NCBI GenBank assembly: GCA_013166835.1
Contig: JABLTI010000055.1
Span: 1-18,844 of the forward strand
Direction: 5' to 3'
Length of the DNA stretch: 18,844 nt
Source: Promethearchaeati archaeon
GTDB lineage: Archaea; Asgardarchaeota; Heimdallarchaeia; JABLTI01
Shown: piece after piece, positions 159 to 17,738 of the stretch
Position numbering within the stretch: the first letter of the stretch is position 1
Layout of the letters: the number at the start of each line of letters is the position of its first letter
Notes under the pieces: generated by a model
What the model saw: only the letters and a program-made list of their open reading frames with translations
What the model was told of the DNA's origin: nothing
Databases searched by the model: none
Position numbers and translations under genes: made by a program

Positions 159-276
159 CTTTTAGACCTTTTGATGTTATTAACTCAAAAATTTTCAAAT
201 CCATTAAAGACATATGAATTCTTATTTGATAACGTTTACTTTAATCTGAAAAATGTATTAAAGGTTCATTCAAAAA

Positions 277-320
277 CGGACTGCTAGCCCTTCAAGAAGA
301 AGTGTGAGTTCTGAGCATCA
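277..320 (+). repeat. Dispersed repeat copy R1 (right part)
   Basis: CGGACTGCTAGCCCTTCAAGAAGAAGTGTGAGTTCTGAGCATCA, nearly identical to 2266-2309. Confidence 0.95.
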
Positions 321-384
321 TTATTTTTTGAAAATCATTTTTGTCACCATAATTTATTTTACTATAAAGCAATAATTATCTAAT

Positions 385-1215: not shown

Positions 1216-1391
1216 ATTTAAAATTTAACACTTCATGTTATTCTATCTGATTATCTACTTTTCAAGTCGTTCTAATATGAAAACATTTGAAAGATTAGTC
1301 ATATACTTTAACCTATCCTTGAAAATTATGAAATAAAAAAAATCAGAAATGAAGTGAAAATTTTTTTCCTTTCTTCCTTTTACTGGTTAGT

Positions 1392-1481
1392 ATTCAAGCT
1401 AGATTTCCCACCAGCATGTACTTACCACTTAAGCGTGACCTTCCCGAAATGGCCTACTAGCCCTGCAAGAAGAAATGTGTG
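1392..1481 (+). repeat. Dispersed repeat copy R2 (long, diverged, alternative tail)
   Basis: Aligns without gaps to R3 at offset 816: CCAGCATGTACTTACCACTTAAGCGTGACCTTCCCGAAATGGCCTACTAGCCCTGCAAGAAGAAATGTG. Confidence 0.9.
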
Positions 1482-1490
1482 CGAGAACTT

Positions 1491-1821
1491 CTATAACAAT
1501 TTTTTTAAAATTTGAATGAGAACAGGAATATCTTTTCCTGGTTTACCAATCATCCTGCTTTCAAGAGCTGTTTGTTTATTCCTGGGATGAAAATGATGTG
1601 GTTTAGAAGAAACATTCCACTTGTCATCATAATTATCATATCTTATTCGATCAAATTTCTTCTGAGAAAATAAAATCTGGTAAGAATATTCATCGAAATC
1701 ATTGTAACGAATGTAAAGTATGAATTAATATGATTTCATAGATCTCTGATAAAAATTGATTAATCAGTAATTCACGAGCGCGTAGAAGCTTTATTCGAGC
1801 ATTAATTTTGGTTTCCCTCAA
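1491..1821 (-). pseudogene. Frameshifted TumE/DUF6516-like toxin gene
   Basis: TTG at 1821 gives MRETKINARIKLLRARELLINQFLSEIYE... and stops at 1699. A second frame from about 1718 reads LYIRYNDFDEYSYQILFSQKKFDRIRYDNYDDKWNVSSKPHHFHP...LIQILKKLL* (TAG 1493-1491), carrying the RYDN...HHxH signature. Not in the ORF track. Confidence 0.65.
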
Positions 1822-1823
1822 TG

Positions 1824-2057
1824 TCAGCTTAGTTTCTTTAGTAAATTCTGAAGTTTCTCCTCTTCACTTACTAATTGCTTCAATTCAATCGCATCATTTT
1901 CAGCTTCTAGTAAGATTCCTTCTTTTGCTTTTTGTAAGAATTCTTCAATTGATTTTTCCTTCCATCTTGAGAGGATATCTTCTATGATTGATTGAATACG
2001 TCTTAGTTTGTAGGTTATTAATTCTTCAGCTACTTCTTTTTTCAAACGTACATCCAT
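1824..2057 (-). CDS. Small helical protein, putative antitoxin of the downstream toxin-like gene
   Basis: 77-aa charged helical ORF whose stop is 2 nt from the start of the toxin-like gene, the usual type II TA layout. Confidence 0.65.
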   Translation of the reverse strand: MDVRLKKEVAEELITYKLRRIQSIIEDILSRWKEKSIEEFLQKAKEGILLEAENDAIELKQLVSEEEKLQNLLKKLS

Positions 2058-2078
2058 TTTTGCTCACTTGTACATCTG

Positions 2079-2096
2079 GTTTATATTTATATAAAC
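2079..2096 (-). promoter_or_regulatory. TATA-like box within an 8-2-8 inverted repeat (possible autoregulatory operator of the TA pair)
   Basis: GTTTATAT-TT-ATATAAAC lies 22-39 nt upstream of ATG 2057. It is AT-rich, so chance is possible. Confidence 0.4.
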
Positions 2097-2207
2097 TATT
2101 CTTAAATATGTTTTATTTGGTTTTCAAGATGGTGACTGTTACGTGTGTTGTTGGACGAAGGTTCCAATACAAGATCGGTTTGAAAGGTTGTGGTGTACGC
2201 GTCGAGT

Positions 2208-2310
2208 CTTCGGGCGGGATGCTCAACCAGCAGGTCCTTCCCTCTTAAGCGTGTCTTTCCCGAACCGGTCTGCTAGCCCTTCAAGAAGAAGTGTGAGTCC
2301 TGAGCATCAA
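2208..2310 (+). repeat. Dispersed repeat copy R3 (most complete, with internal inverted repeats)
   Basis: CTTCGGGCGGGATGCTCAACCAGCAGGTCCTTCCCTCTTAAGCGTGTCTTTCCCGAACCGGTCTGCTAGCCCTTCAAGAAGAAGTGTGAGTCCTGAGCATCAA. GATGCTCA (2218-2225) is the reverse complement of TGAGCATC (2301-2308). Confidence 0.97.
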
Positions 2311-2316
2311 TCATTA

Positions 2317-3153
2317 CTAAATTTTCTTTTTCACTGGAACAGGTCTAATGTTTTTACTGGATTTGGAACTTGTTTTAGACTTCTTTGAAACTGGTTTCTT
2401 TTTCACCACTGGTTTAGGTTTAAGAGAGCTACTTGTTGTTGTTTTCCTTTTTGTAGTATGAACTCTACTTGGTTTAGATGATACAGTTGATCTTGGAGGT
2501 AATTTTGGAACTACTTTCTTTTGCTTTGGTTTTGTAGTTGTGCTTCTTACTTTAGGCTTGCTAGATGAAACTTGGCTTCTTGATTTCACCTTAATTGGTT
2601 TCTTTACACTAGTTTTCTTCTTCACATGTAGTTTACTAACTTGACTTCTTGGCTTTACCTGAGATGATTTTGAGGAAGTTTTAGTTGACAATTTAGAAAT
2701 CGGTTTAGCAGGTCTTTTTTGAGTTGTTGTTATCTTTACTTGTTTTTTCATCGGTCTAGCTAATGTTGGTCGTTGACCAGGCTTTCTAGAACTAGGTTTA
2801 GATTTGATTCTCCCAACTGTTCTTGAAACCCTAACTTTGCTTTTCTTCTTTTTAGAATTCAACTCTTTGATCCGAATAATAGCATATCCTGCTTCCTCTC
2901 TAACTTTATCATCTCTATCTTTGTTTAAAGCAAGCTTCAAAGAAGCTAATGCTCTAGTATCTCCAATTTTTGCTAATGCTTTTGCAGAATTCTTTCTAAC
3001 ATATCTATCTGGATCTGATTTTAAAACAGAAACTAATGCCCCTACAGCTCTTTTGTTACCTGACTCTCCTAGATTCCAAGCTGCTTTCTTGCGCACTCCG
3101 ATATCCTTACTTCTCAAATTTTGAATTTCTTTTTCAATGGAAACTTTTTGCAT
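2317..3153 (-). CDS. HEAT-repeat (PBS lyase-like) protein with a long Lys/Ser/Pro-rich basic tail
   Basis: The first ~95 aa have VRKKAAWNLG / VRKNSAKALAKIG / VREEAGYAI repeats. The remaining ~180 aa are low-complexity K/S/P/T/V. Confidence 0.85.
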   Translation of the reverse strand: MQKVSIEKEIQNLRSKDIGVRKKAAWNLGESGNKRAVGALVSVLKSDPDRYVRKNSAKALAKIGDTRALASLKLALNKDRDDKVREEAGYAIIRIKELNSKKKKSKVRVSRTVGRIKSKPSSRKPGQRPTLARPMKKQVKITTTQKRPAKPISKLSTKTSSKSSQVKPRSQVSKLHVKKKTSVKKPIKVKSRSQVSSSKPKVRSTTTKPKQKKVVPKLPPRSTVSSKPSRVHTTKRKTTTSSSLKPKPVVKKKPVSKKSKTSSKSSKNIRPVPVKKKI

Positions 3154-3263
3154 TTGTATCCACCAGTAAGTGAGATCCCCAACTATCTTTTGTATTGCGC
3201 ATCACCTATTTTATTGTAACTGAATGACCATTATCTGAGTATGGCAATTTGCATGATGGTTGG

Positions 3264-3293
3264 TTAAAGAAGAAGTATGAGTCCTATGCAGCA
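3264..3293 (+). repeat. Dispersed repeat copy R4 (short, diverged right end)
   Basis: TTAAAGAAGAAGTATGAGTCCTATGCAGCA versus consensus TTCAAGAAGAAGTGTGAGTCCTGAGCATCA. Confidence 0.8.
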
Positions 3294-3464
3294 AAATTTG
3301 ATATATTTAGATAATTGTGATTTTAGTCTAGGCTCAATTCAATTGATTAGAAAACTGTAAGAACTTTTTCCATAATAACTAAAAAAGAAAACAAAAATCG
3401 AAAGAAGTGTATTTGAAGACTAACAAATACTAAACTTCTTTTCATTTTCACTAAAAATACTGTA

Positions 3465-4115
3465 CTATAATTTACTAGATATTTCTTTTAACGTCTCTAA
3501 GATTTTGGACAGCAAATCCTCCTCATCAAGTGAAGATGCTATTTCAGTATCAGCAGTAATTGCTGCCTGTCCTTTCATTTTAGAAAGAATACCTCGAATC
3601 TTATCAGTGTAACTACTAACATCCATTACACCTTCAAGTCTTTGTTCTGGATGAGATTTATCTCCACCTTGACCAGCAGTTTCAATATTGATGGTTCCAA
3701 AATTATTACCACCAATAATTCGATCAAGAATACCTCTACGCATAACAAAATTTGTTATGTTTCGATAAGGGACGATTTTAGTTCTTTTGATTAAAAATCC
3801 TCTATTAACTATAATTTCTTGGGTTGTTAATGCATAATTAATTGAATTGTAGTATGGAAATATAAAAATTATTCCAATAATATAAACTGGTACCATTACT
3901 CCCGCGGTAATGCTACTAAAAAGAACCACTACACGCGTGACATCTTTCGCTTCCAAAATTATAGAGATACAGGATGCTACAATGATTGCTATCATTGCTA
4001 TCCAAATTAATGTCCATAAAATTATCATTTTTGTAATAAATTTTCTATCTGGTAGGAATTCATCTAAAACTTTCTGTTTTCCTACTCCAAAGATTTCAGT
4101 TTTGTTTTCAGTCAT
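3465..4115 (-). CDS. Membrane protein with a bacterial PH domain (bPH_2 / YdbS-like)
   Basis: Two TM helices followed by YALTTQEIIVNRGFL...VPYRNITN...RGILDRIIG...GTINIETAG, the typical bPH_2 pattern. Confidence 0.85.
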   Translation of the reverse strand: MTENKTEIFGVGKQKVLDEFLPDRKFITKMIILWTLIWIAMIAIIVASCISIILEAKDVTRVVVLFSSITAGVMVPVYIIGIIFIFPYYNSINYALTTQEIIVNRGFLIKRTKIVPYRNITNFVMRRGILDRIIGGNNFGTINIETAGQGGDKSHPEQRLEGVMDVSSYTDKIRGILSKMKGQAAITADTEIASSLDEEDLLSKILETLKEISSKL

Positions 4116-4174
4116 TTTATATCTATGATGATATTTCCTAATCTGAAATATAAGTCATTTTGAAAAGTAGACTT

Positions 4175-4188
4175 GTCAAACTCTTGAC
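4175..4188. promoter_or_regulatory. Palindrome GTCAA-N4-TTGAC in the divergent promoter, candidate operator
   Basis: Inverted repeat between the divergent starts at 4115 and 4281. The adjacent gene has an ArsR-like wHTH. A second palindrome, TCCTTA-T-TAAGGA, lies at 4206-4218. Confidence 0.35.
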
Positions 4189-4280
4189 TAGTTCTGTTGT
4201 CTTAATCCTTATTAAGGAAAAGACCTTTTGTCAATCATCTCCTATATTTCTAATCTTTACTAGTTACTAAGGGATTAACG

Positions 4281-5222
4281 ATGCAAGATACCGAACTATC
4301 TGTTGAATCAGAATATGTGCTTCGAGCAATTTCACATGAACTTCGACGGAAAATGCTGTTTCTAATTCGAGATAATACAAGTCAGAGTTACACTGAACTT
4401 TTAAGGAAGCTATGGCTTTCAACTGGTAAATTAAACTTCCATCTCAAGCAATTAACAGGGATTATAGAAAAGCAAGAAGATGGCTTTTATGTTTTAACCA
4501 AAATTGGAGAGCAAGCTGTTAATATTCTCGAGCAAATTAATTCAATGAGTGAGAATAAAGAACAAGTTGAGATTCTGAAAAAAATCAGTATTAGTACTTC
4601 ACTCAAACAATTTAACCCCGCACCTGAGATAAAACGTAAATGGTATTTTTGGGCTATAGTAATTTATCTTTTTGCTATTTGGTGTCCTGTGATAGTAACT
4701 GTGAGTGTTTTAGATTTGAATTTCCTCAATGTACTCCAAACAGGCAAAGCTTCGTTAAGGATTCTGGCCAATGATGGAGTACTCACAGGTATAATATTGC
4801 TGCTTATATTTCTGACTTGTTTTCTCTTAGCGAAATATCATAAAACAATATCATATGAAATACTTGATACCGAGATTGCGATTGTTAAAGGATTATTTGT
4901 GAAAACTCGAGCAATCATACCATTCAGAACTATAACAAATCTTGTGATTAAACAGGGACCAATTGATCTTCTCTTAGGTATTTCTGAAGTTATAATACAA
5001 ACAGCTGGTGAATCAGCAAAAGCAGAAGCTGAGGGAAAGATTGTAGGTATGTATTATGCAGAAGATTTAATTGAAGAGATTTTAAATCTAGTTAGACTTC
5101 TAGATCCACCAACCTATTTACGAGATAAAGTACCATTAACAAAGTCACCAAAGAATATAACTGCAATTTACTCACAGATTCTATCAGAGCTGCAAAAAAT
5201 AGATGAGAAGTTAACAGAGTAA
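4281..5222 (+). CDS. ArsR-like winged-HTH + 2 TM + bPH_2 fusion protein
   Basis: N-terminal AISHELRRKML...SYTELL...STGKLNFHLKQL...YVLTKIG wHTH, two TM helices, then IPFRTITN...QGPIDLLLG...IQTAG bPH_2. Confidence 0.85.
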   Translation: MQDTELSVESEYVLRAISHELRRKMLFLIRDNTSQSYTELLRKLWLSTGKLNFHLKQLTGIIEKQEDGFYVLTKIGEQAVNILEQINSMSENKEQVEILKKISISTSLKQFNPAPEIKRKWYFWAIVIYLFAIWCPVIVTVSVLDLNFLNVLQTGKASLRILANDGVLTGIILLLIFLTCFLLAKYHKTISYEILDTEIAIVKGLFVKTRAIIPFRTITNLVIKQGPIDLLLGISEVIIQTAGESAKAEAEGKIVGMYYAEDLIEEILNLVRLLDPPTYLRDKVPLTKSPKNITAIYSQILSELQKIDEKLTE

Positions 5223-5225
5223 TCA

Positions 5226-5255
5226 TGAAGAAGAAGTGTGTGACCTGAGCATCAA
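5226..5255 (+). repeat. Dispersed repeat copy R5 (right end)
   Basis: TGAAGAAGAAGTGTGTGACCTGAGCATCAA begins a few nt after the stop of 4281..5222 and is followed by a T-tract. Confidence 0.88.
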
Positions 5256-5678
5256 TATTTTTTGATTTTTTATAAAGTTATCTTTCAGCAAGTTTAGTGA
5301 AAGGGTTTAAAAAAAGGAATATTTCACATAATATTGGAAGCTTTATAATCACAGAGAAAAGCTTGTTACACACTGTCTGGAGGACAACTGAAATAATGAT
5401 TGACATGGATTTTTTATTAGTTCAAACAAGAAAGCAGCAAAACCTCTTGATTATTGTGAGATTCTAGTGGCAAGACAGCTCCTAAACTAACTTCCTATCT
5501 TGAGGGATTTGTCGGTTTTAATTTGGGTTAATCAAAGAAGTTGGATTGAACGTTCTGTCTATTTGGTTTTTTTAAGAACCTTGAGATATTGCTAGATATG
5601 TTGCCATTATTGGTTCTTTTTCAAAACTAAGCAAGAACATCTCCTAACTGTTGAATTAATCCCCAATATTATTCCAGT

Positions 5679-6767
5679 TTGGAGAGTGAAAGAAATTTGG
5701 CTAAAATAAAAGAAAAAACAAAAAAAGTTAGTGATTTCAAAGAAAATAATGAACTAGATGATGGAAAAGAACAAGAATCCATTATTGTTGTAGATGAAGT
5801 ATTTGATATTCTCCGTGTCGAGGATATTGAAAAGGTTGATCGAATAAAAGCTACCAAGAAAATAAAAGGAGTAACTCGAACAACTCGAGCAGTGGAACGA
5901 CCTGAAAAACTAATGATATCAAGAGCTAGTAATAAATATTACACAGCAGAAGATTTCGATCCATCCTTTATGCCAATGCAAGAGCAAGAAATAGATTATC
6001 AAAAACTTAGAAGTGAATTGATAAACTATAGAGCAGTTACTGACTTGGTAGCTGAGATCAACTCCGGTAAAGAAGCATCCATCTATTCTGCTCATCTAAA
6101 TGGTGCACCACTCATTGTGAAAATGTTCAGATTGCAACTAACATCACATAACAAAGCTAAAAGACGTCGTGTTGGTAATCCACTTACAAGAGCAACATCC
6201 TATGCGGAAACGGAATATTTCTTCATGAGCAAAGCATACAGAGCAGGACTTAATGTTCCAACTCCCGCAATGAAGATAAACAATATCATCCTTATGCAAT
6301 TCATTGGAACAGATTGGGCTCCAGCACCACAATTGAGAAAAGTGATCCTAGAAGAACCTGAACTAATGTTCGACAAGATTGTAGAACAACTCAAAATAAT
6401 GTATCAGAAAGCTAAACTAATACATGGTGATTTCTCAGAATATAATATACTGGTACATGAGAATAAACCAATTATTATAGACTTTCCACAAGCAATTGAT
6501 ATGAGCTTAGTTGGTAATCGCAGTGAAAATAGAATAAACAGTCATTTACAGGTATTACAGAAAGACATTCAAACAATCATAAATTACTTTGAGAAACAAT
6601 ACAACCTACAAGCTAGTTTTAAAGAAATATATCGATACGTTGCTGGTTTCGATGCTAGAAGAGAAAGAATAGATTTTACTATAGAAGAGATTGAGGAACA
6701 AATCAAACTACAGAAAATGATGGTACCAAGAGCAGAATTAGGAGATTTAGATGTACGAGGTAAGTAG
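5679..6767 (+). CDS. rio1: RIO1-family atypical Ser/Thr kinase
   Basis: SGKEASIY P-loop, GLNVPTP, ILMQFIG, LIHGDFSEYNIL catalytic loop and IIDFPQA motifs. The TTG start is uncertain. Confidence 0.9.
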   Translation: MESERNLAKIKEKTKKVSDFKENNELDDGKEQESIIVVDEVFDILRVEDIEKVDRIKATKKIKGVTRTTRAVERPEKLMISRASNKYYTAEDFDPSFMPMQEQEIDYQKLRSELINYRAVTDLVAEINSGKEASIYSAHLNGAPLIVKMFRLQLTSHNKAKRRRVGNPLTRATSYAETEYFFMSKAYRAGLNVPTPAMKINNIILMQFIGTDWAPAPQLRKVILEEPELMFDKIVEQLKIMYQKAKLIHGDFSEYNILVHENKPIIIDFPQAIDMSLVGNRSENRINSHLQVLQKDIQTIINYFEKQYNLQASFKEIYRYVAGFDARRERIDFTIEEIEEQIKLQKMMVPRAELGDLDVRGK

Positions 6768-6827
6768 CCAAAATCCTCACACTTTTTACATTAGATTATT
6801 CTTTCTCCTCAATATTTTTTTCAAAAA

Positions 6828-6860
6828 AGGATTTCTAACCTTTAAAGAAAAAGTGTGAGT
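6828..6860 (+). repeat. Dispersed repeat copy R6 (diverged, alternative tail)
   Basis: CTAACCTTTAAAGAAAAAGTGTGAGT aligns without gaps to CTAGCCCTTCAAGAAGAAGTGTGAGT. Confidence 0.7.
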
Positions 6861-6947
6861 AGAGACTCTATTTTTTTATTGAGATTTTATAAATTCTTAA
6901 TAACTGATAAGAGAATGATATAGCTAAAGTTATTGGAGTAAAAATCA

Positions 6948-7187
6948 ATGAATTCTGAATTTGGGACTGCATTAAGGATTAAGCTTCTTAAAGAAGAATT
7001 TTTACGTCTAATCAAATTATCTCAGAGGGAAATTATATATAGAGTGAAAAAAACGCACCTATTTGCTTTTGATGGTTTTGTATTTTATTGTGAAGAATGT
7101 GAGGATAGAGATTTCGATACTGTAATCGTTGGTTCAGAATTATCAAATATAACATGGTTCTTTGAAAAGGATAGAAAGAAAAAATAA
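6948..7187 (+). CDS. Small hypothetical protein
   Basis: 79-aa ORF with GGAG upstream and one CxxC (CEEC). It is the only ORF between R6 and R7. Confidence 0.6.
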   Translation: MNSEFGTALRIKLLKEEFLRLIKLSQREIIYRVKKTHLFAFDGFVFYCEECEDRDFDTVIVGSELSNITWFFEKDRKKK

Positions 7188-7206
7188 TAATACTTCATTC
7201 ATTCTT

Positions 7207-7309
7207 CTTCAAGCGAATAGTTTAGCAGGTAGGTATTTCCTGTTTCAGCGTGTCCTTCCCGAACCGGACTTCTAGACCTTAAAGAGGAAGTTTGAGTCCT
7301 GAGCATCAA
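7207..7309 (+). repeat. Dispersed repeat copy R7 (full length, left part diverged)
   Basis: Same length as R3 with no gaps: ...AGCGTGTCCTTCCCGAACCGGACTTCTAGACCTTAAAGAGGAAGTTTGAGTCCTGAGCATCAA. Confidence 0.93.
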
Positions 7310-7407
7310 TTGTTTTTCTTATGTGAAAACTATGATAGCATTTTGAATTTTTAAGAACAATCAATGCCAAAACTAATTACATGGTTAAATTAGATAAGAA
7401 GTGAGGT

Positions 7408-8250
7408 ATGCTGATGGATTTAGAACTTGAAGGAAAAGTAGCACTCATAACTGGTGCTTCTGGTGGTATTGGTGCGGCTACAGCTCGGGTACTTGCTGCA
7501 GAAGGTGTTGATGTTATTGTTCATTACAATAGTAGTGAAACTAGAGCTAAAAAATTAACTAATGAATTAGGCACAAACGCTCTCAGTATTCAAGCAGATC
7601 TCTCGAGTGAACATCAAGTTCTTGAAATGTTTGAAGAAATTGAGAAGCAAAAGGGTAGAATTGATATCCTAATTTGTAATGCAGCTATCTGGCCTGAAGA
7701 TTACACTGAAATTGAAAAAATGACTTTGGAGAGATGGAAAAATACTATGACTATCGATCTTGATAGTGTCTTCCTTTGTTGTCGCTCTTTTATACAACAG
7801 CTTCGAAAATTTGATGGTGATTCAGCTAGTATTGTTATTGTAGGTTCTACTTCTGCAGTTTTTGGAGCAGCCGGTCATGCTGATTATTCTGTAGCAAAAG
7901 CCGCAATAAGTTATGGATTAACTAGAAGCTTAAAAAATGAGATTATTAATGTTGTAAGATTAGGTAGAGTTAATGCTGTCTGTCCAGGGTGGACTGTCTC
8001 TCCAATGTCAGAAAAATATCTTGATGACGAAGAAGGTATAAAACACATTTTAAAAACTGTTCCAATGAAAAAGATTGCCGAATCAGAAGATATTGCAAAT
8101 ATGATTACAGTCTTGGCATCGGATAAATTATCAGGTCATATTTCAGGCGAGATCATTACAATTGCAGGTGGTATGGAAGGTCGAGCTTTACATCTTCCAG
8201 AAGAAATTGATTTCTCGAAAGCTTATAAAAGAAAAAAAAGAGAATCTTGA
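7408..8250 (+). CDS. SDR-family NAD(P)-dependent oxidoreductase
   Basis: TGASGGIG Rossmann motif, CNAA, YSVAK catalytic motif and VNAVCPG. GAGGT lies upstream, and the true start may be ATG 7414. Confidence 0.93.
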   Translation: MLMDLELEGKVALITGASGGIGAATARVLAAEGVDVIVHYNSSETRAKKLTNELGTNALSIQADLSSEHQVLEMFEEIEKQKGRIDILICNAAIWPEDYTEIEKMTLERWKNTMTIDLDSVFLCCRSFIQQLRKFDGDSASIVIVGSTSAVFGAAGHADYSVAKAAISYGLTRSLKNEIINVVRLGRVNAVCPGWTVSPMSEKYLDDEEGIKHILKTVPMKKIAESEDIANMITVLASDKLSGHISGEIITIAGGMEGRALHLPEEIDFSKAYKRKKRES

Positions 8251-8260
8251 CGAATTTACT

Positions 8261-8294
8261 CCCCATCAAGAAGAAGTGTGAGTCCTGAGCATTA
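8261..8294 (+). repeat. Dispersed repeat copy R8 (right end; last 3 nt are the stop of the next gene)
   Basis: CCCCATCAAGAAGAAGTGTGAGTCCTGAGCATTA. TTA at 8292-8294 is the TAA stop of 8292..9188(-). Confidence 0.93.
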
Positions 8295-9188
8295 TTTTTC
8301 AAGTATAGCATTAATAAGATCCTCTGGCAATTTACCTTCTTGTGCAGATTTTTTATATGCTGCAGTCATCTTTGGACTAATCTCAAGGGTTTTTTTCAAA
8401 TAGTAAATGGCTTGCTCAATTTTGCCTAGTTCTAAATAAGCAAAACCAATTCCCGTCCAAATATCGAGATATCTTGCTTCTTCCTTATCTTGAATAAATT
8501 TGCCTGCTTTCTCTAGGATTAGTAGTTTTTCTTCTTCATTCGCTGCTTTTAGTTCAGAATTATAACCCCAGAAAACTTGAAGGTTTTTAAACACTCCAAG
8601 AATCCGACCTAACTCTCTAACTGGCTCATCATGATCTTCTATTGTTATATCAATTACAGTATCGCTATCTGCACCTCCTCCTTTTTTCTTAACAAGTAAT
8701 CTAGCACTTTGTTTGCCACGAGCATCCCCTCCAGCATCATCACCAGCTTGTAAAGCTGCGAAAAGTCTCTCCATCAATGAACCCTTAGTATTTTCAAATG
8801 CTAATGTCATTTTCTCAATTACTTTTGGACCAACAAGAATATTTCCTTGACAAGCATAATCCTTGCCAGTTTTATGTCCTGCCCAATAGGTGCAATTTTC
8901 ACCTGTAAATGCATAAGTTTCTCCATTGAATGTTACCATGCCAATCTGTCTACTTTCAATACCATCATCGATTTCTCTGAAGTGTTCCATAATTTGCTCT
9001 ATAGTTTTGTTTTCTTTTAATTGTTCAAAAAAAGCCGAAAGAAGAAATAATCTTCCTTGTGCTTGAGAAGCCATTACACCTTTTTCTGCTTCTACTCGAC
9101 AAACTAATCCCGAGTTCCAAGCACAAGATGCAATAGCAAATCCAACTTCTTTTTCCTTTTTATCTATAGCTACTATTGAAAATGTCAT
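8292..9188 (-). CDS. DUF1028 (Ntn-hydrolase-like) protein with C-terminal TPR
   Basis: MTFSIVA N-terminus, RQIGMV, QGNILVG, GGDARGKQSA and DHDEPVREL motifs. The C-terminal WTGIGFAYLELGKIEQAIYYLKKTLEISP is a TPR. Confidence 0.9.
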   Translation of the reverse strand: MTFSIVAIDKKEKEVGFAIASCAWNSGLVCRVEAEKGVMASQAQGRLFLLSAFFEQLKENKTIEQIMEHFREIDDGIESRQIGMVTFNGETYAFTGENCTYWAGHKTGKDYACQGNILVGPKVIEKMTLAFENTKGSLMERLFAALQAGDDAGGDARGKQSARLLVKKKGGGADSDTVIDITIEDHDEPVRELGRILGVFKNLQVFWGYNSELKAANEEEKLLILEKAGKFIQDKEEARYLDIWTGIGFAYLELGKIEQAIYYLKKTLEISPKMTAAYKKSAQEGKLPEDLINAILEK

Positions 9189-9303
9189 AATCTATTCAAG
9201 CATTAATTTATTTAAAATAATAATTCACATTATGAGGTCACATCTTGTGAGTTGTAAAAAACTGTAATTTTCACTTAATTGTCATTTCACACGTATTGTA
9301 TGC

Positions 9304-9356
9304 TTCAGCGTGCCCTTCACGAACCGGACAGCGAGTCCTGCAAGATGAAGTGTGTG
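9304..9356 (+). repeat. Dispersed repeat copy R9 (middle part, alternative tail)
   Basis: TTCAGCGTGCCCTTCACGAACCGGACAGCGAGTCCTGCAAGATGAAGTGTG aligns without gaps to R3. Confidence 0.88.
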
Positions 9357-9611
9357 CAGTGATACTACATTTTTTTGTTTTTATTCAAAGTACCTCTTCA
9401 CCATCTATCATACAATCATCAACAATATTAAGCAAATTTTCTAATATTCTTATCAATTTATAAGAATTTATTCAATAAAATTTTTGTTCATGAATTCAGC
9501 GTTCTGCTTCAAACTGAAATAACCATCCAAAACAAACACAGCGATAAACTCATTTTATTCAAGACAGAATTTTTTTAAGGAGAAGAGGAATGGTTTATTG
9601 GATGTATTATT

Positions 9612-10790
9612 ATGAAAAAATTTCCTTCATACCTTGGTGTTAAAGCTTTTGGTGTCAAAATCGGTGCTGTTCTCCCACGAGATAATATCGTAGAAGAGGT
9701 CTGTAAAGCAGTTAAAAAATGCCATGAAGACCATCTAATCGATGACCGGGACATCGTTTGTGTTAAGGAGTCAATCGTTGCGCGAGCACAGAATAATTTC
9801 ATCTCTAAGGAAGACATTGGGATAGAAGTTAGGGAAAAATTAAAGCTATCCAAGACGGACACGCTTGGTATACTTTTTCCGATAGCAAGCCGGAATCGGT
9901 TTGTACCTATCTTGGAGGGACTGGTGCTAGCTGTCCCCAAGGGCAAAGTAGTCATCCAATTTTCTTATCCTAGAGATTGTGTGGGAAATCAGATCGCCCC
10001 TGAGGAGTTAGAGGAGCAACTAGGTATCAATCTTAGTAGAGAGGAGATACTTGCAGATCAATTACAAAAATATGATTTTCGTCACCCAGCCACGGGTGTG
10101 AATTATTTGAGCTTATATGAAGAGATCATCAAAAAAGCTGATGTTGAAGCAGAGATTTTTCTATCTAACAACACAAGTAAAATACTCGACCATAAACCAA
10201 ATGGTATCATTGTGGCGTGCATCCATGAAAGGGATAAAGTGCTTGAAAGAATAAATAAGGTTTTTGAAAATGCTATCACGATGCAGGATCTATTCAATGA
10301 TAGCAAAAAAGCAGTCTGGTCGGAGTGGGGGCTTCTCGGAACGAACATGTATTCTGAGGACAAAATAAAGCTACCTCCGAGGGAGTCTTTTAAAGTTGCT
10401 AAGGCCATCCAGAAAGCAATATACAACACTACTGGAAAAAAGGTGGAGGTACTGATATACGGTGATGGAGCGTATATGGATCCTTCAACGGGGATATATG
10501 AGTTGGCTGATCCAGTCTGTTCCTTCGGGCACAGCGACGGGCTGAATAGAAAACGGCAAGGAATAAAATACAAATTTTTTGTTGGTACCTTACATGCCCA
10601 AGGAAAAAAGAAGGGAGAGATTGAAGAAATCATCGATGAACAAAAACAGAAAATGTATGAGATAGATAATATCTCTATGGAGGGCACCACACCCAGAAAA
10701 CTTGAAGACATTGCAAGCAGCTTAGCAGATCTCGTGACTGGTTCCGCAGATGCTGGCACACCCATAGTAATTATTAAAGACCTCTTATAA
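9612..10790 (+). CDS. Coenzyme F420-0:L-glutamate ligase (CofE)-like family protein
   Basis: DIVCVKESIVARAQ, SRNRF, YGDGAYMDP..GIYELADP and GTTPR...SLADLVTGSADAGTPIV, which I recall from the ~400-aa F420-ligase-like family common in anaerobic bacteria. Substrate not determinable. Confidence 0.75.
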   Translation: MKKFPSYLGVKAFGVKIGAVLPRDNIVEEVCKAVKKCHEDHLIDDRDIVCVKESIVARAQNNFISKEDIGIEVREKLKLSKTDTLGILFPIASRNRFVPILEGLVLAVPKGKVVIQFSYPRDCVGNQIAPEELEEQLGINLSREEILADQLQKYDFRHPATGVNYLSLYEEIIKKADVEAEIFLSNNTSKILDHKPNGIIVACIHERDKVLERINKVFENAITMQDLFNDSKKAVWSEWGLLGTNMYSEDKIKLPPRESFKVAKAIQKAIYNTTGKKVEVLIYGDGAYMDPSTGIYELADPVCSFGHSDGLNRKRQGIKYKFFVGTLHAQGKKKGEIEEIIDEQKQKMYEIDNISMEGTTPRKLEDIASSLADLVTGSADAGTPIVIIKDLL

Positions 10791-10800
10791 TAAAAAATGA

Positions 10801-10874
10801 CCCATGGGAGCAGATTTGAACTATTGTCCTCTTGCTTGTAGTACCAGTGTCATAAACGACTAGACCACCCATTT
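10801..10874 (-). pseudogene. Degenerate tRNA-Val(TAC)
   Basis: Minus strand reads AAATGGG TG GTCTAGTCGTTTATGAC A CTGGT AC-TAC-AA GCAAG AGGAC AATAG TTCAAAT CTGCT CCCATGG G. Cloverleaf spacing and D/T-loop motifs are kept, but acceptor (5/7 paired), anticodon and T stems have mismatches. Confidence 0.75.
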
Positions 10875-10897
10875 GTTAGAAGAATAGTTATTTGTAA

Positions 10898-10918
10898 GAG
10901 GGGAATAATCCTCCCCTC
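10898..10918. terminator. GC-rich hairpin, possible terminator
   Basis: GAGGGGA-ATAATCC-TCCCCTC forms a 7-bp stem, with T-rich sequence shortly downstream. Confidence 0.35.
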
Positions 10919-10968
10919 AGAACGTTTCTTCTTTAGATTTTTCACGTCATTGTATTGCCAAGGATTCG

Positions 10969-11056
10969 CTTCAGATGAGATGCTCAGTCAGTAGATACTT
11001 CCTACTTAAGCGTGTTCTTCCCGAACCGGACTGCTAATCTTGAAAGAATAAGTGAG
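10969..11056 (+). repeat. Dispersed repeat copy R10 (left and middle intact, right end replaced)
   Basis: CTTCAGATGAGATGCTCAGTCAGTAGATACTTCCTACTTAAGCGTGTTCTTCCCGAACCGGACTGCTAATCTTGAAAGAATAAGTGAG aligns without gaps to R3 at offset 8761. Confidence 0.93.
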
Positions 11057-11178
11057 ATAAAAAATCATCTTTATTGTTTTAACTACTGATATTTTAACAT
11101 TAATGTCAATTTACGAAGAAAATTAATTAAAATGAATCTATTATATAATTACTTGACAGATGCTAGGTTGAGAATATC

Positions 11179-11634
11179 ATGAGAATGGGGAAAATAACTG
11201 CTAAAGCAGTAATTGAATGTGTAAAAGCAATAAACTATCTTTCATTAGATTCAAGAAAATCAGTTACTTCTGAGAAAGTACATAAGTATCTTAGAATGAG
11301 TTTTGAGTATGTTAATGATGCAATTGAAGTAGCTATAATAATGCAATTTATCAATAATGGTGAATCACTAACATTATCTTCTGCTGGACAGAAATTGATT
11401 AGTTCAACAACAAATCAATCACAAATATTATTCAGAAAACAATTGCTAAAATTGCCAAACATTAATCAATTGATTGTATTAATTTCTGAAGGAAATAGTT
11501 TCGAAGATGCAGTTAATAAAATTATAGTTTCCTATAATATCCAAGGGAAAGAAAAGGAGATATTATATTCTTTTAGAAATTTGATGTTGTTTGCTAATAT
11601 GATTGGACCTGAAGGAACCATAGAAAAGGAATAA
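11179..11634 (+). CDS. Hypothetical protein, probable winged-helix fold
   Basis: 151-aa ORF. AIIMQFI...LTLSSAGQKLI resembles a wHTH wing. No family confidently recognised. Confidence 0.65.
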   Translation: MRMGKITAKAVIECVKAINYLSLDSRKSVTSEKVHKYLRMSFEYVNDAIEVAIIMQFINNGESLTLSSAGQKLISSTTNQSQILFRKQLLKLPNINQLIVLISEGNSFEDAVNKIIVSYNIQGKEKEILYSFRNLMLFANMIGPEGTIEKE

Positions 11635-11677
11635 GCAATGAAAAAAAAATTCTTGATATAATCCTATTCTATAATTA

Positions 11678-11734
11678 TGTCTTGCTGAAATGGTCTTTTA
11701 GCCCTTCAAGAAGAAGTGTGAGTCCTGAGCATCA
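11678..11734 (+). repeat. Dispersed repeat copy R11
   Basis: TAGCCCTTCAAGAAGAAGTGTGAGTCCTGAGCATCA is identical to R3, with a decayed left extension TGTCTTGCTGAAATGGTCTT. Confidence 0.95.
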
Positions 11735-11786
11735 GTTTTTAGGAGCAAGAAATTTAATAGTAATAAAAAAAATAACATAAATTATA

Positions 11787-12824
11787 ATGATCTTAAATAA
11801 TGCTTTAGTCAAGGAAATTATCAATAGTAATTATGATTTGGGTGAGATAGTATCAGTAAATCCTCTAGAATCGGGTCATGAAAGCGATAATATTAAAGTT
11901 ACCACTGAAAGGGGAGATTACGTGATAAAATACTTCCCTCAAGAACCTGAGCATCTCAGAGAGGTAATTATTCTTCAAGATTTGCTTTTTTCAAAGGGAG
12001 TCAAACTTCCACAACCAATCAAAACAATTACCGATGATTTTGTTGTCGAATATAGTCCAACAGAAACCATAGCAATACAATCGTTTGTGTCTGGAGAAGC
12101 CATTGTTTTTCGCGATAAAGATCCTGAGAAAATGTTTAGTTTGATGAGCTGGTTTGGTAAGTGTCTTGGAGAGTTTCATTATCTTTCAAAATCCATAAAC
12201 GAATCCGAAATAAGGCAAAGAATACCGAGAGAGGATTTCTTTGATCAAACTTCCGGGATGCAATGGGTGAAGGAACAATATGAAAAAGCAGAGACGCAAC
12301 TTCCCCAACATGAAAAAAACAAAGCAATTCTAAAGGAATTTGAAATTTACCTGAAAGAAATAGATGAGTTATTCAGTAGTGATATGACATTAGGAATTAT
12401 TCATACTGATTTAAAACCTGGGGATTTCTTTGCTGAAAATAATGAGTTAACTGGTATCCTTGATTTCAATGGAGCGCATTATTCCTACATAATAAATGAA
12501 CTTGGCACTTGGGTCATGTATTCTTCACTCTACAAACCTAAAAATAAAACCAATTTTCAAACATTCATCAAATTTTATTTGGAACACTCAAAAATCCCAA
12601 TGCAAGAACTAATATTCATACCTATGCTTCTGAAAGGGAGAGCTTTCGTTCAATTCTTCTACTTTGCTTACCGTATCCACAATAACATCACTCAAGGACT
12701 TGGTGAAGGTGAAACCAATCTTAAAGGGTTTGAGGATGGAATTAACTTAGTAGAGGCATCTTTGAAAATTCCGAGAACCTACTTCTATGATCTCGCTGTG
12801 CATGTTTTGGAGAAACCAAAGTAG
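11787..12824 (+). CDS. APH / type II homoserine kinase-like phosphotransferase
   Basis: YVIKY, LPQPI, LGEFH, Brenner-type IHTDLKPGDFF and GILDF motifs. Confidence 0.85.
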   Translation: MILNNALVKEIINSNYDLGEIVSVNPLESGHESDNIKVTTERGDYVIKYFPQEPEHLREVIILQDLLFSKGVKLPQPIKTITDDFVVEYSPTETIAIQSFVSGEAIVFRDKDPEKMFSLMSWFGKCLGEFHYLSKSINESEIRQRIPREDFFDQTSGMQWVKEQYEKAETQLPQHEKNKAILKEFEIYLKEIDELFSSDMTLGIIHTDLKPGDFFAENNELTGILDFNGAHYSYIINELGTWVMYSSLYKPKNKTNFQTFIKFYLEHSKIPMQELIFIPMLLKGRAFVQFFYFAYRIHNNITQGLGEGETNLKGFEDGINLVEASLKIPRTYFYDLAVHVLEKPK

Positions 12825-12874
12825 CGTTATTATTCTTCAAAAGCTTCATATTCTGTTAACAATAATGAAAATAT

Positions 12875-13714
12875 ATGTCAAAATGGCCTGATGCTATCCC
12901 TCGAGAGTCAAACAAAAACCTAGAGGAAATTGAGAGCATCTCAAACTGGTTTGCAATTTATAGAATAAACAAAGATACTTTCGCCTTATTGGAACCATTT
13001 CACATTGAAGAAGTTGTTTCTTATCTGTTTATTGGTGAAGAGCAAGCCTTACTGTTTGATACAGGAATGGGTGTTGTTAGTATTAAACAAGAAGTTGAAG
13101 CTCTTACTGAGAAGGAATTAATTGTCTTAAATAGTCACTCCCACTATGATCATGTTGGAGGAAATTATGAATTCACGAATGTTTGGGCTTTCAACAATGA
13201 TTGGGAAATAAAACGAATGAAAAACGGTGATTATTCACAGAAGAGGTTCAAGAATTTTGAGGACTCAAATATTTGTACTGATTTGCCAAGTGGTTTTGAT
13301 AAGAATAGCTATCACATCAAACCTTCAGTAGTTTCCAAGATAATTAAGGATCAAGAGAGAATAGATCTCGGGAATCGAAAGCTAATTATTCATCACACAC
13401 CTGGTCATAGTCCAGCTAGCATCTGCATACAAGATTACCAATACAAGTTATTATTTACAGGTGATACTTTGTATCCCGGAGAAATGTACCTTGATCTTGA
13501 AGGATCCGATTTTGACATTTATATCAAATCAATAAACTACCTAAATGATTTGTATGAAGAATTACTCTTTCTTTGTCCCGGACACAATGAAGCTCTTATC
13601 TCAAGAGATTATTTGCGAGACTTCAAGAATGCTTGTGAAAAAGTCAAATCAATAATACCTCAAAACCCTCCTCATAGAAATATCGATTTTGGTAATTTTA
13701 GTATCAGTTTTTAG
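12875..13714 (+). CDS. Metallo-beta-lactamase-fold hydrolase
   Basis: LFDTG, SHSHYDHVGG, HTPGHS, LFTGD and CPGH metal-binding motifs. Confidence 0.92.
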   Translation: MSKWPDAIPRESNKNLEEIESISNWFAIYRINKDTFALLEPFHIEEVVSYLFIGEEQALLFDTGMGVVSIKQEVEALTEKELIVLNSHSHYDHVGGNYEFTNVWAFNNDWEIKRMKNGDYSQKRFKNFEDSNICTDLPSGFDKNSYHIKPSVVSKIIKDQERIDLGNRKLIIHHTPGHSPASICIQDYQYKLLFTGDTLYPGEMYLDLEGSDFDIYIKSINYLNDLYEELLFLCPGHNEALISRDYLRDFKNACEKVKSIIPQNPPHRNIDFGNFSISF

Positions 13715-14259
13715 TAATTTGAATTCTTATTTACAATCGTTTGTATTTTCTTAATTAATATAGCTAGATCTTCTTTCTGTTCAATGTTAAATTCATTTAC
13801 AATGATACTCTTCTCTTTGTGTTGCTCTAAATACTTGAAGATAAGAGGGCGATATTCTTCATGAAATAATCTTATCACTTTAAAATTATCTTCGATATCC
13901 CCTTCGTAAGAACAGTTTTCGCTAACGTAAGGATTTGGTCTGATTTTTTCCTCATCCATTCGTTGTTGTGCGTGTTTGAAGCAGGTCTCTAGCAGTGGAT
14001 CTATGAAGATAATTATCTCAGCTCGTTCAAATCGACTATCATAAGTTGATTTGTAAGCAACACCGTCTAGTATCCATTGTTCTTTATCAATGATTTCTTG
14101 ATGTTTGGCTACGAATTCCTCTTCTGGGGTTCTTTCCCATCCTGGCTTCCAGAGGATTTTATCAAGATGATAGACTGGCAATTGTAATTCTTTCCCAAGT
14201 AGAACTGCTAATGTAGATTTACCCGCCCCGGAATTTCCCATAATTGTTATTCTCGTCAT
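13711..14259 (-). CDS. FlaR / topology-modulation-like P-loop kinase
   Basis: ITIMGNSGAGKSTLA, YHLDKILWKPGW and WILDG. Start moved to ATG 14259 (MTRITIMG). Confidence 0.85.
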   Translation of the reverse strand: MTRITIMGNSGAGKSTLAVLLGKELQLPVYHLDKILWKPGWERTPEEEFVAKHQEIIDKEQWILDGVAYKSTYDSRFERAEIIIFIDPLLETCFKHAQQRMDEEKIRPNPYVSENCSYEGDIEDNFKVIRLFHEEYRPLIFKYLEQHKEKSIIVNEFNIEQKEDLAILIKKIQTIVNKNSNY

Positions 14260-14373
14260 TTCTTTCTTTTCCAATTTTTTACAAAAATAACTAATTCTCA
14301 AATTAGGTTTTCGTTTATTTAAACAATATTGAGATTTCTCTTCAGCTTCTTTTAATTAAAAGTAGCAAAAAAA

Positions 14374-14420
14374 GAAACAGACTTCAAGCCCTTCATGAAG
14401 AAGTGTGAGTCCTGGGCATC
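14374..14420 (+). repeat. Dispersed repeat copy R12
   Basis: GAAACAGACTTCAAGCCCTTCATGAAGAAGTGTGAGTCCTGGGCATC. Confidence 0.92.
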
Positions 14421-14434
14421 CTATGGATAATCCC

Positions 14435-15100
14435 TTACTCATCTTTAATTTGAATTGGTTGTTTTGCGAGAGTGACTCGAGAGCTAATTTCAATACTGTT
14501 GATGTAATAGACTGCACCTACGACCTCTGTTCCGTGGCCAATCGTCACGTCCCGACCCTTAACATCCCCTGCAACAAAAGTCTTTTTGATATTAACTTCA
14601 TTATCAGCAACAATGTTGCCATGAACTTTATATGGATGTTTAATAGGACGTCTGTCTATAGGCCTGCCGATAAACACGTCTTCTGCCTTGATATTTCCTT
14701 CAACAGTTGTATTTCCACGTAAAATTACCTCTTTTTTAGACATGAGGTTTCCTTGGATATTTGTTAAGCCAGAAATTTTAACCCCTTCAAGAGCTTCTAA
14801 TTGTTTCCCTGTTTTTAGCGTTCCTGACTTTGAATATTTTCCTTCAATGAGAATTCCACCGTCAATAGTAGTTGATCCCGCTGATCTTGCATCTCCTTCA
14901 ACGGTAAGAGAACCTTTTAGTCTAAATGTTCCAGAACATTGAAAATCTCCAAGAACAGATAAATCCCCTGACCCTTTTAAGCTGCCTGAAGATTTAAATT
15001 CCTCACATTCCAAATTCCCATTTATTCTCGTTGAACCAGATGCAACGAGACTTTCATTTATTTTTCCTTCCGGAAGTGTTGATGAACCAGATACTCTCAT
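14435..15100 (-). CDS. Polymer-forming cytoskeletal (bactofilin-like, YhbE/YhbF-type) beta-helix protein
   Basis: Repeated SGS/xxxGxL and IxGNI beta-solenoid units along the whole 221 aa. AGGAG lies upstream. Confidence 0.8.
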   Translation of the reverse strand: MRVSGSSTLPEGKINESLVASGSTRINGNLECEEFKSSGSLKGSGDLSVLGDFQCSGTFRLKGSLTVEGDARSAGSTTIDGGILIEGKYSKSGTLKTGKQLEALEGVKISGLTNIQGNLMSKKEVILRGNTTVEGNIKAEDVFIGRPIDRRPIKHPYKVHGNIVADNEVNIKKTFVAGDVKGRDVTIGHGTEVVGAVYYINSIEISSRVTLAKQPIQIKDE

Positions 15101-15174
15101 TTTCTTATCTCCTTGATTTACTTATAGATTGTCTAATCATTATAATTAAGGTATGGAATTCATTAGTTCTGATA

Positions 15175-15214
15175 TTCTAAACCTTCAAGTTGCAGTGGGA
15201 GTCCTGAGCATCAA
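15175..15214 (+). repeat. Dispersed repeat copy R13 (its TCA is the stop of the next gene)
   Basis: TTCTAAACCTTCAAGTTGCAGTGGGAGTCCTGAGCATCAA. TCA at 15211-15213 is the TGA stop of 15211..15660(-). Confidence 0.88.
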
Positions 15215-15660
15215 TATATAGTTATTTTTTGTTTTTTCGCTAAGTCGAGTAAGTGTTGGTATTGCCAAATTCTTTCATCGGCAATAACGGTTGCTGCATA
15301 ATTGGCAGCATGGATAGCGTGACCCGCAACATGGGCGGTTGCTGCTGCGTGTCCTGCTGCACGAGCAACTGCACGTGCATCACATTCTTCAATATCACGG
15401 GCAGCAGCGTGAGCAGCGAATGCAGTAGTACGAACCTCCCCTACAGATAGCTTACCATGCACCCAAGCTCGTCCTGCTTCTATTGCTTTTCTAGGTCGAT
15501 CATCTTTCGGATACTTTTCTTCAAAATATGATAATATATGCTCCGCACAGTCAGTCGCCCAGATTACTAATGTTCTGTGGTCTATTTTACTCGTTAACTC
15601 TGTGATTGCATTTTTTATGTCCTCTTCCCCTTTTTTATCAACAAAATTAACTTTTTTCAA
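15211..15660 (-). CDS. Imm5-like putative immunity protein
   Basis: WATDCAEHIL..FE...P.DDRPRKAIEAGRAW..G followed by the Ala-rich AFAAHAAAR...ARAAGHAAATAHV..HA pattern. Confidence 0.85.
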   Translation of the reverse strand: MKKVNFVDKKGEEDIKNAITELTSKIDHRTLVIWATDCAEHILSYFEEKYPKDDRPRKAIEAGRAWVHGKLSVGEVRTTAFAAHAAARDIEECDARAVARAAGHAAATAHVAGHAIHAANYAATVIADERIWQYQHLLDLAKKQKITIY

Positions 15661-15721
15661 TCTAATCCTCTTTATAATTGTGTAAGTAAATTTGAATAAT
15701 ATATGCTTTTTTTCATTTTGA

Positions 15722-17692: not shown

Positions 17693-17738
17693 TTTCCTAT
17701 AATCTAACTAATTATTAAAAATTACAAATATTAATCTT

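Follow-up and report, generated by a model that had tools for sequence, protein, structure and literature searches.

What is the repeat that divides the genes of an 18,844-nt archaeal contig into small units, and why do stop codons of unrelated genes fall on its last bases? The window analysed here is the entire contig JABLTI010000055.1 of a Promethearchaeati archaeon (Heimdallarchaeia), listed as C141 of genome G000 (assembly of 3.56 Mb in 260 contigs, 33.7% G+C, 85% completeness). A previous inspection of the letters alone (the sequence-only reading) had likened the repeat to the attachment sites of integrons and had proposed that cargo genes are joined to it at their stop codons. We find that the repeat is, with little room for doubt, a co-oriented and incomplete copy of the 23S rRNA gene's 3' terminus together with the 3' trailer of its transcript. 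The reading that we favour, at a probability of roughly 0.6, is that the repeats are displaced copies of this terminus left by serial insertion of DNA behind the 23S gene, the stop codons at their ends being mostly a side effect.

Repeats in G000 were counted by nhmmer with a profile built from five window copies. The congeneric set comprised 11 genomes including G000 (40 contigs or regions, 646,601 nt), in which nhmmer returned 194 copies; 178 of these matches were taken into the alignment, the remaining 16 lying under the inclusion threshold. The class-wide set consisted of 83 genomes, 72 of them outside the genus. Two models carry names that must be kept apart from those of the repeat copies R1 and R2: the sequence-only model "R1" and the covariance model "CM R2" (177-nt core).

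The identity of the repeat emerged only via long copies and out-group genomes, and not from searching the window with Rfam, which gave no match at the gathering score anywhere in the window and none to the large subunit (LSU) rRNA at E≤10 within 1300-2400. Window copy R3 and six copies from other genomes (the seven long copies) were alignable over ~215 nt, and RNAalifold placed 49 pairs in them on the + strand, nine with compensatory changes. CM R2 scored 158.5 bits across 2121-2295 of R3 and matched 55 of the 83 genomes in the class-wide set; among the 72 from other genera it matched 44, with exactly one copy in 36 of these. The sequence-only model had found the repeat in 10 of 10 other congeners and 0 of 30 genomes outside, and the genus-specific repeat that this suggested was overturned by the structured model. 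Five out-group loci were scanned with Rfam: at four the element coincided with the final ~134-138 nt of a full-length LSU_rRNA_archaea match and the 31-40 nt beyond it, and the fifth was an LSU fragment. The long copies of G005:C98, G008:C95, G009:C20 and G010:C35 are true LSU gene 3' ends, and window positions 2130-2260 showed 80-87% identity to the 3' ends of the Rfam-confirmed LSU genes of the first three, the end of the LSU model corresponding to window position 2260. R3 is not a full-length LSU gene (RF02540), only the last ~130 nt being present, and copies R1, R5, R8 and R13 are trailer only. The trailer sequence GAAGAAGTGTG base-paired with the 23S leader sequence CACACTTCTTC in each of the three genomes folded, from which it follows that the best-kept part of the repeat corresponds to the 3' strand of the pre-23S processing stem; the 5' partner of that stem is absent at displaced copies. 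The repeat is consequently the sense strand of the 23S end and trailer, on the + strand of the window, and the array does not run as gene, stop and repeat on the minus strand, as had been thought.

G000 has 37 copies, confined to six of its 260 contigs and co-oriented within each contig, and G005 has 60 copies across six contigs. Over the 40 regions of the congeneric set, orientation matched that of the rest of the contig for 193 of 194 copies; the sole opposite-oriented copy (genome coordinates 20601-20665 (-) of L126, G008:C95) lies ~5 kb upstream of the LSU gene. The 5' starts are scattered across the entire model, more than half of the 194 copies being without the 5' arm, and only ~8 stop before model position 101, such that the copies form a nested, 5'-truncated series sharing one 3' end. 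Compared in pairs, copies have 35-180 nt in common at 70-90% identity, and the 3' ~45 nt is the best-conserved stretch. G044, which is classified in a different genus and family, carried 19 copies, including a long copy (L151, G044:C8, 8711-8886) and five more; the long copy scored 207 bits and was near-identical to the copies of this genus, which points to cross-genus transfer or to mis-binned contigs.

In relatives, the head of the array is the 23S gene. G005:C98 holds a full LSU gene (98488-102769) with the first cassette directly behind it and eleven further copies over the following 27 kb; an LSU gene is found in the same way at the long copy of G008:C95, G009:C20 and G010:C35; and in a genome of another genus (G033:C8) two co-oriented partial copies stand 7 and 26 kb downstream of the LSU gene. 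The LSU match of G005:C98 is 4.3 kb long versus a model of 2,987 positions, and within it (L017, LSU 13489-17770) lies a LAGLIDADG endonuclease open reading frame (ORF; 15718-16275), presumably intron-encoded. An ORF of 228 aa that precedes the 23S gene of G005 was considered and set aside, since it is not conserved in this position elsewhere. Four contigs of G000 (C112, C141, C215 and C185) are linked in a chain via 144-nt end overlaps, and Rfam searches of the neighbouring G000 contigs revealed no 5S gene or tRNA at a distal boundary.

The sequence-only reading was right in seeing a cassette array. Units of the window were found singly and in another order in other species (G003:C215, G005 and G007) at 73-94% identity; on G003:C215, for example, the order is F420-ligase-like, HEAT, SDR, MBL, bactofilin and wHTH-like. 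A duplicate of the SDR unit, 87% identical, is found on C133 along with its truncated downstream copy of the repeat. Cargo of the window array comprises an unknown 276-aa gene, a toxin-antitoxin (TA) pair, HEAT, two bPH_2 genes, a RIO1 kinase, a 79-aa ORF and SDR, then DUF1028-TPR, F420-ligase-like, wHTH-like, APH with MBL and a P-loop kinase, bactofilin, and Imm5-like with HD. Across arrays the cargo is accessory in kind: TA pairs, the Imm5-like gene, kinases, ABC transporters, and leucine-rich-repeat and TSP3 proteins.

We examined where homology ends relative to the repeat using 63 homology blocks (≥88% identity, ≥400 nt), positions being given on the repeat model, in which the column of the terminal TCA (the TCA column) occupies 115-117. 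In the pairs of highest identity, homology extends beyond the cargo into the copy that lies downstream of it, and ends right after AAGAAGAAGTG. Homology breaks at two places, just beyond the trailer and right after GAAGAAGTG, the second being ~15 nt upstream of the 3' trailer edge. Right block ends that mapped to the repeat (n=24) included 12 at 98-105 and seven at 115-125, and left block ends (n=19) comprised eight at 119-133 (2-16 nt after the column), eight at 151-167 and three inside the repeat. What follows the repeat also varied: the core at cassette 1 was the same in three genomes and its tail different in each, two distinct tails followed cassette 9, and public contigs matching R3 (from four public runs) showed at least four different continuations after 2304-2315, those entering R3 at 2130 coming from genuine 23S sequence. 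At R8 the DUF1028-TPR gene's own TAA abuts GAGCA(T). Because block ends, tails and public contigs all diverge there, the 3' trailer edge is a real boundary between repeat and cargo, and on this point the earlier suggestion of a junction at the repeat end is borne out.

That suggestion had begun with stop codons of three unrelated genes in one column, and the coordinates given for them are right. The TCA of R3 is aligned with the TGA stop of 15211..15660(-) at R13 and with TTA 8292-8294, the TAA stop of 8292..9188(-), at R8. The third, CTA 1491-1493 at R2, does stand in the column in ungapped MAFFT rows; its homology to the column is given by the offset only, since the 3' tail of R2 is of a different subtype, and the toxin-like gene that it ends is broken. 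This ORF, 1491-1724(-), has 77 codons stop-to-stop and no start codon, and 41 letters that are present in contigs of all four public runs examined are missing from the window between 1725 and 1726, which interrupts the gene in this assembly; the 41-nt gap may reflect a variant or a fault of the assembly. The two further gene ends said to lie near the repeat, at 2317 and 14435, are present as well, at distances of d=+10 and d=+16 (d being the distance in nt from the TCA column to the nearest convergent stop, for ORFs ≥60 aa called by a crude longest-ORF procedure).

In the larger set of copies the coincidence did not generalise. A reverse-complement stop triplet occupied the column in 69 of the 178 aligned copies (39%; TCA 35, CTA 24, TTA 10), irrespective of genes, TCA and CTA being the consensus of the two tail subtypes. 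A convergent ORF followed 78 of the 178 copies, with d=0 in five; two of the five are in the window and two come from one homologous cassette, leaving two independent new cases. The convergent stop lay within 6 nt or inside the repeat in 14 of the 78, within 26 nt in 24 and within 53 nt in 36, and this spacing was no shorter than that of ordinary convergent gene pairs in G000 (n=311, 40 longest contigs; 18% within 6 nt, 49% within 26 nt, 72% within 53 nt, median 27 nt). The coincidence in the window is real and hardly exceeds what is to be expected from a compact genome and the repeat's own stop triplets. In addition, the minus strand of the consensus with its T-run carries a stop in every frame (TGA in the column itself, TAA 4 nt beyond it and TAG 34 nt inside the repeat), and thereby catches ORFs that have lost their own stop.

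The three stops of the window have three origins: the cargo's own stop (R8), a repeat-supplied TGA after read-on (R13) and a broken gene (R2). A homologue of the R8 gene in a repeat-free context (G005:C80) retains the ...EK* end; the same homologue (L109, near genome coordinate 24310) has an in-frame TAG 10 codons ahead of ...EK*, with the downstream codons still homologous. At R13, both of the two chromosomal homologues of the Imm5-like gene end in ...QK*, and the window gene has one extra A in a run and adds ITIY before the TGA; it reaches the TCA column because it reads four codons past the homologues' stop, an outcome that the sequence-only reading had itself set against joining at stop codons. 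The stop at R2 is common with an intact 123-aa homologue, which also adjoins a decayed copy. The R8 TTA and the R13 T-run were considered as trailer-derived, and the homologues assign both to the cargo genes.

Repeat copies and associated features of the window, with coordinates on the forward strand (a point in the strand column marks a feature with genes on either strand)
Feature	Position	Strand	Evidence
R1, trailer-only copy	274..324	+	nhmmer
R2, starts inside the 23S end; other tail subtype (GTGTGTGCGAGAACTT)	1377..1491	+	nhmmer, alignment
R3, 5' part (long form); pseudo-copy of the LSU rRNA gene end (last ~130 nt)	2130..2260	+	
R3, 3' part; 23S 3' trailer copy with GAAGAAGTGTG and TCA column 2307-2309	2261..2314	+	
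R4, weak trailer-only copy	3264..3308	+	repeat family D2; missed by nhmmer at E≤1
R5, 32-nt trailer remnant, 3-5 nt past the stop of 4281..5222(+)	5228..5259	+	nhmmer
R6, degenerate trailer copy	6827..6870	+	nhmmer
R7, long copy	7192..7313	+	nhmmer
R8, trailer remnant in the 41-nt gap between convergent 7408..8250(+) and 8292..9188(-)	8263..8297	+	nhmmer
R9, long copy; tail subtype GTGTGTGCAGTGATAC	9250..9373	+	nhmmer
R10, long copy with decayed tail	10952..11072	+	nhmmer
R11, trailer copy	11681..11737	+	nhmmer
R12, trailer copy	14374..14420	+	nhmmer
R13, trailer copy; its TCA 15211-15213 serves as a TGA stop	15176..15216	+	nhmmer
R14, degenerate copy; same place in G003:C41 and G007:C186	17735..17810	+	nhmmer, cross-genome comparison
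Cassette array, 13 repeat-bounded units of 1-3 genes each	325..17734	.	Pfam; units recur singly elsewhere
TA-like cassette; interrupted toxin-like ORF 1491-1724, partner ORF 1824..2057	1491..2057	-	
HEAT-repeat gene cassette; stop d=+10	2317..3153	-	
DUF1028+TPR gene, 298 aa; own TAA abuts the trailer remnant	8292..9188	-	Pfam; homologue G005:C80
Bactofilin gene cassette; stop d=+16	14435..15100	-	
Imm5-like gene, 149 aa; stop from the repeat	15211..15660	-	Pfam PF21805, 7.8e-41

Three side observations concern the cargo and the rRNA genes of these genomes. A tRNA-like sequence at window 10804-10872 (-), inside the F420-ligase-like cassette, scored 25.3 bits with the Rfam tRNA model (gathering score 29); it was not called by ARAGORN, and the cassette of G005:C75, 94% identical, retains it. 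The arrays of G010 (C28, C31, C33) contain 10 occurrences of a protein family of ~310-340 aa to which no Pfam entry matches, along with several decayed copies, and its genes (e.g., L022 2581-3600 (-)) are often convergent with copies having a CTAC-type tail. In G012:C23 (L154) the small subunit (SSU) rRNA gene (1-857 (-)) and the LSU gene (1764-5138 (+)) are divergent, ~900 nt apart, and form no operon.

How, then, might copies of a 23S terminus have come to stand between cassettes? For the serial-insertion mechanism taken by itself we see a chance slightly better than even. The window would lie inside a large accretion island behind a single 23S gene. Insertion of a segment of one to three genes at the 23S 3' end would duplicate part of the terminus, keeping the rRNA gene and its processing stem intact, and each such insertion would push the previous terminus copy downstream. 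Serial duplication of this kind would yield co-oriented copies with a common 3' end and a variable 5' extent, as in tRNA-gene islands. Recombination among the copies could later permute, duplicate and delete cassettes. The crossover may be site-specific and located near GAAGAAGTG..GCATCAAT, made either by an enzyme acting in trans or by host homologous recombination, and the sharp 3' edge may represent the outer limit of the sequence required for pre-23S processing. Stop codons would touch this edge because cargo begins there and because the genome packs convergent genes tightly.

Several results weigh against this account. The LSU gene of G000 itself is absent from the assembly, and the window's linkage to a 23S gene is for that reason drawn from its relatives. 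Long copies occur deep within arrays (R3; G005:C98 at 124.6 kb), and there is no simple gradient with young copies proximal to the gene. A single-crossover model predicts that the tail moves with the downstream cargo, and only the three left block ends mentioned above, of 19, enter the repeat; several shared cassettes are without a repeat on one side in another genome. Contigs of the four public runs demonstrated no excision, circular or empty-site joint, and the joints between repeats that they did contain had sides of only 25-32 nt lying inside the repeat, which is ambiguous and reflects other copies, not excision. Nor was a recombinase found with the arrays. None of the 24 matches to tyrosine recombinases (PF00589) in the genus was on an array contig; G000, at its stated completeness, had no match to RVT_1, Y1_Tnp or resolvase; and Pfam identified no recombinase among the 18 ORFs of the window or among 40 array, island and boundary ORFs of other genomes. 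The 40 comprised 10 before or inside the G005:C98 rRNA gene (at least three of them within it and probably not genes), 10 of the G033:C8 island and 10 representatives of recurrent array families, among others.

G000 encodes a single tyrosine recombinase, a 352-aa protein on another contig (G000:C61, 14202-15254; L167, 1200-2258), with ~90 extra residues and a score of 117 bits on the archaeal XerA model (cut-off 220). This divergent XerA-like protein was present at E≤1e-20 in eight of the 11 congeneric genomes (counting G000 and a fragment in G009) and in 0 of the 72 genomes outside the genus; since related genomes are not independent, the distribution makes it a candidate recombinase, no more, and it may be the genus's own Xer. 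Canonical XerA is present in other families of the class; proteins above the cut-off were missing from family f1 and from nearly all of f2, including the closed genomes G016 and G026. A bolder form of the serial-insertion account can be built on this candidate, and we advance it only tentatively: Heimdall-type Asgard archaea would possess an integron-like capture system whose attachment site is the 23S trailer, in which a recombinase acting in trans (the XerA-like protein of 352-360 aa being the candidate) inserts promoter-bearing cassettes outside the processing stem, and the resulting stores of more than 100 kb, situated behind the lone 23S gene, pass from species to species.

The alternative that survives best, although we think it rather doubtful, is host homologous recombination with no dedicated enzyme. 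Circles or foreign DNA with some stretch of 23S end would insert by a single crossover, and unequal crossing-over would shuffle the units. The lack of a recombinase on any array contig is in its favour, the 35-180 nt common to the copies at 70-90% identity would provide the substrate, and a 23S end conserved between species is a ready anchor; rRNA genes have indeed been proposed as the recombination sites flanking a hypervariable region (HVR2) of SAR11 bacteria, in the available text of Wilhelm et al. 2007 (PMC2217521). Homologous recombination should, however, truncate copies at either end, yet the 5' starts vary while nearly all copies run past model position 101, and block ends cluster at two narrow places and are not spread across the repeat. 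We rank serial insertion near the trailer above pure homologous recombination, and the latter above an added role of the copies at the level of RNA.

That third reading, which we consider unlikely, holds that trailer copies are kept as terminators or processing signals, gene conversion homogenising them and selection preserving their 3' part. It is in keeping with the conservation of the 3' ~45 nt, with the T-run found after many copies and with the close position of copies behind + strand genes (R5, R7 and R8 start 3-13 nt past stops). The orientation of the copies is nevertheless constant whatever strand the neighbouring genes have, and copies are without the 5' partner with which a processing stem would form. 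Where the copies came from is left unexplained by such a role, which could be a function added to serial insertion and is not a true rival to it.

The remaining explanations are all unlikely. A mobile non-autonomous element that resembles rRNA and prefers gene 3' ends (of the kind of a miniature inverted-repeat transposable element, an IS200/605-type end or a 5'-truncating retroelement) would account for the nested, 5'-truncated series with its common 3' end and for the strict strand bias. We hold it very improbable, given that the copies of G000 are all in arrays and not dispersed over the genome, that G000 is without a reverse transcriptase or Y1 transposase and has its two TnpB genes on contigs other than the arrays, and that the full-length "master" is a real 23S gene end.

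A still smaller chance is given to a canonical integron-type array, or cluster of attC sites lacking an integron integrase (CALIN), in which the repeats would be attC sites and an IntI encoded elsewhere would recombine them in their folded, single-stranded form. Co-oriented sites between small cassettes, many of them TA pairs, resemble such clusters; an enrichment of both integrons and CALINs among Asgard genomes has been reported (Ghaly et al. 2022, PMC9668308, in the portion available); and an imperfect ~95-nt hairpin closed by GATGCTCAG/CTGAGCATC can be drawn. The attC analogy of the sequence-only reading finds no support in the core sites: pairs of RYYYAAC...GTTRRRY 50-160 nt apart with at most one mismatch occurred once in the window (at R14) and at none of the other 13 copies, as compared with a mean of 1.9 in 50 shuffles. 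Covariation gives the short-repeat hairpin almost no backing as an attC-like fold: 72.7% of positions were paired versus 70.5% in shuffles (10 of 500 shuffles reaching the former value), RNAalifold retained three pairs over 13 copies, and the 5' arm is wholly absent from more than half of all copies. The repeat is already accounted for as rRNA gene end and trailer, the array head in G005:C98 is an LSU rRNA gene and not intI/attI, and the best match to an integron integrase (TIGR02249) was a 45-residue stretch of 33 bits (cut-off 265).

Of equally slight probability, and close to refuted, is ORF-aware capture, with cargo joined at or targeted to stop codons: three window stops in one column and junctions ≤3 nt from the stops of the HD and DUF1028 genes speak for it, and against it stand d=0 in five of 78 convergent cases with two independent outside the window, a stop triplet in 39% of copies anyway, the four-codon read-on of the Imm5-like gene and distances not shorter than ordinary convergent spacing.

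If serial insertion behind the 23S gene is correct, there would be a second route to an accessory-gene store on the scale of integrons, anchored on one of the cell's most conserved sequences, and in this archaeal group, the closest one to eukaryotes, the anchor would be a ready landing pad for DNA of foreign species. Variable islands in Asgard metagenomes would then have a marker in the 23S trailer and its processing stem. Copies of the 23S end explain the assembly breaks in these regions, and they are a warning that fragments of rRNA ends may be mislabelled by repeat finders and by attC searches that rely on structure. The stop-codon pattern is a minor consequence.

Among known systems, the composite staphylococcal cassette chromosome (SCC) accumulates tandem units at the 3' end of one housekeeping gene, rlmH, and a short direct repeat of this gene end delimits each unit. 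It differs from the 23S arrays in having its own serine recombinases, a protein-coding target and a bacterial host.

A search of the literature returned no description of rRNA-end repeat arrays, including none that combined the 23S end with an integrase and direct repeats. The nearest cases place variable or mobile DNA beside rRNA genes. HVR2 of SAR11 lies between the 23S and 5S genes (Wilhelm et al. 2007, PMC2217521; cf. the preprint "Pelagibacter, resolved"), and as far as the available text of these sources goes, it is likewise a hypervariable island right behind a 23S gene for which rRNA genes were proposed as recombination anchors; it is bacterial, its cargo consists of large surface-polysaccharide operons, and partial rRNA copies within the island are not described there. 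The insertion site of HeimM2 in Ca. Heimdallarchaeum is flanked by the 16S rRNA gene on one side and tRNA-Arg on the other (Wu et al. 2022, PMC8813620). This is mobile DNA of the same archaeal group, placed immediately next to an rRNA gene; in the available portion of that paper it is a single 8-kb element at 16S with a homing-endonuclease homologue, and no rRNA-end array is described.

Integrons and CALINs share with the 23S arrays their length, the small cassettes and co-oriented sites, the TA cargo, the reshuffling of cassettes between relatives and the lack of an adjoining integrase at most arrays. The sites here are instead copies of an rRNA end, the R''/R' cores are absent and many sites are too short to fold, and genes of both orientations occur, each with an upstream region of its own.

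The closest parallel is found in islands at the 3' ends of tRNA and tmRNA genes, where the target is regenerated and a fragment displaced, sometimes in tandem (Islander database; Badel et al. 2021, in the parts available); tandem integration in archaea is described in the latter review of archaeal tyrosine recombinases, in the accessible text of which the term "rRNA" is not mentioned. Our arrays differ from these islands in that the target is the 23S gene end plus trailer, and in that the units are of ~0.4-3 kb, without an integrase, in tens of copies per genome. They are alike in having a stable RNA as target, an intact gene at one end (here in G005:C98 and G033:C8), and co-oriented partial copies with the 3' end of that gene, between which variable accessory cargo is held.

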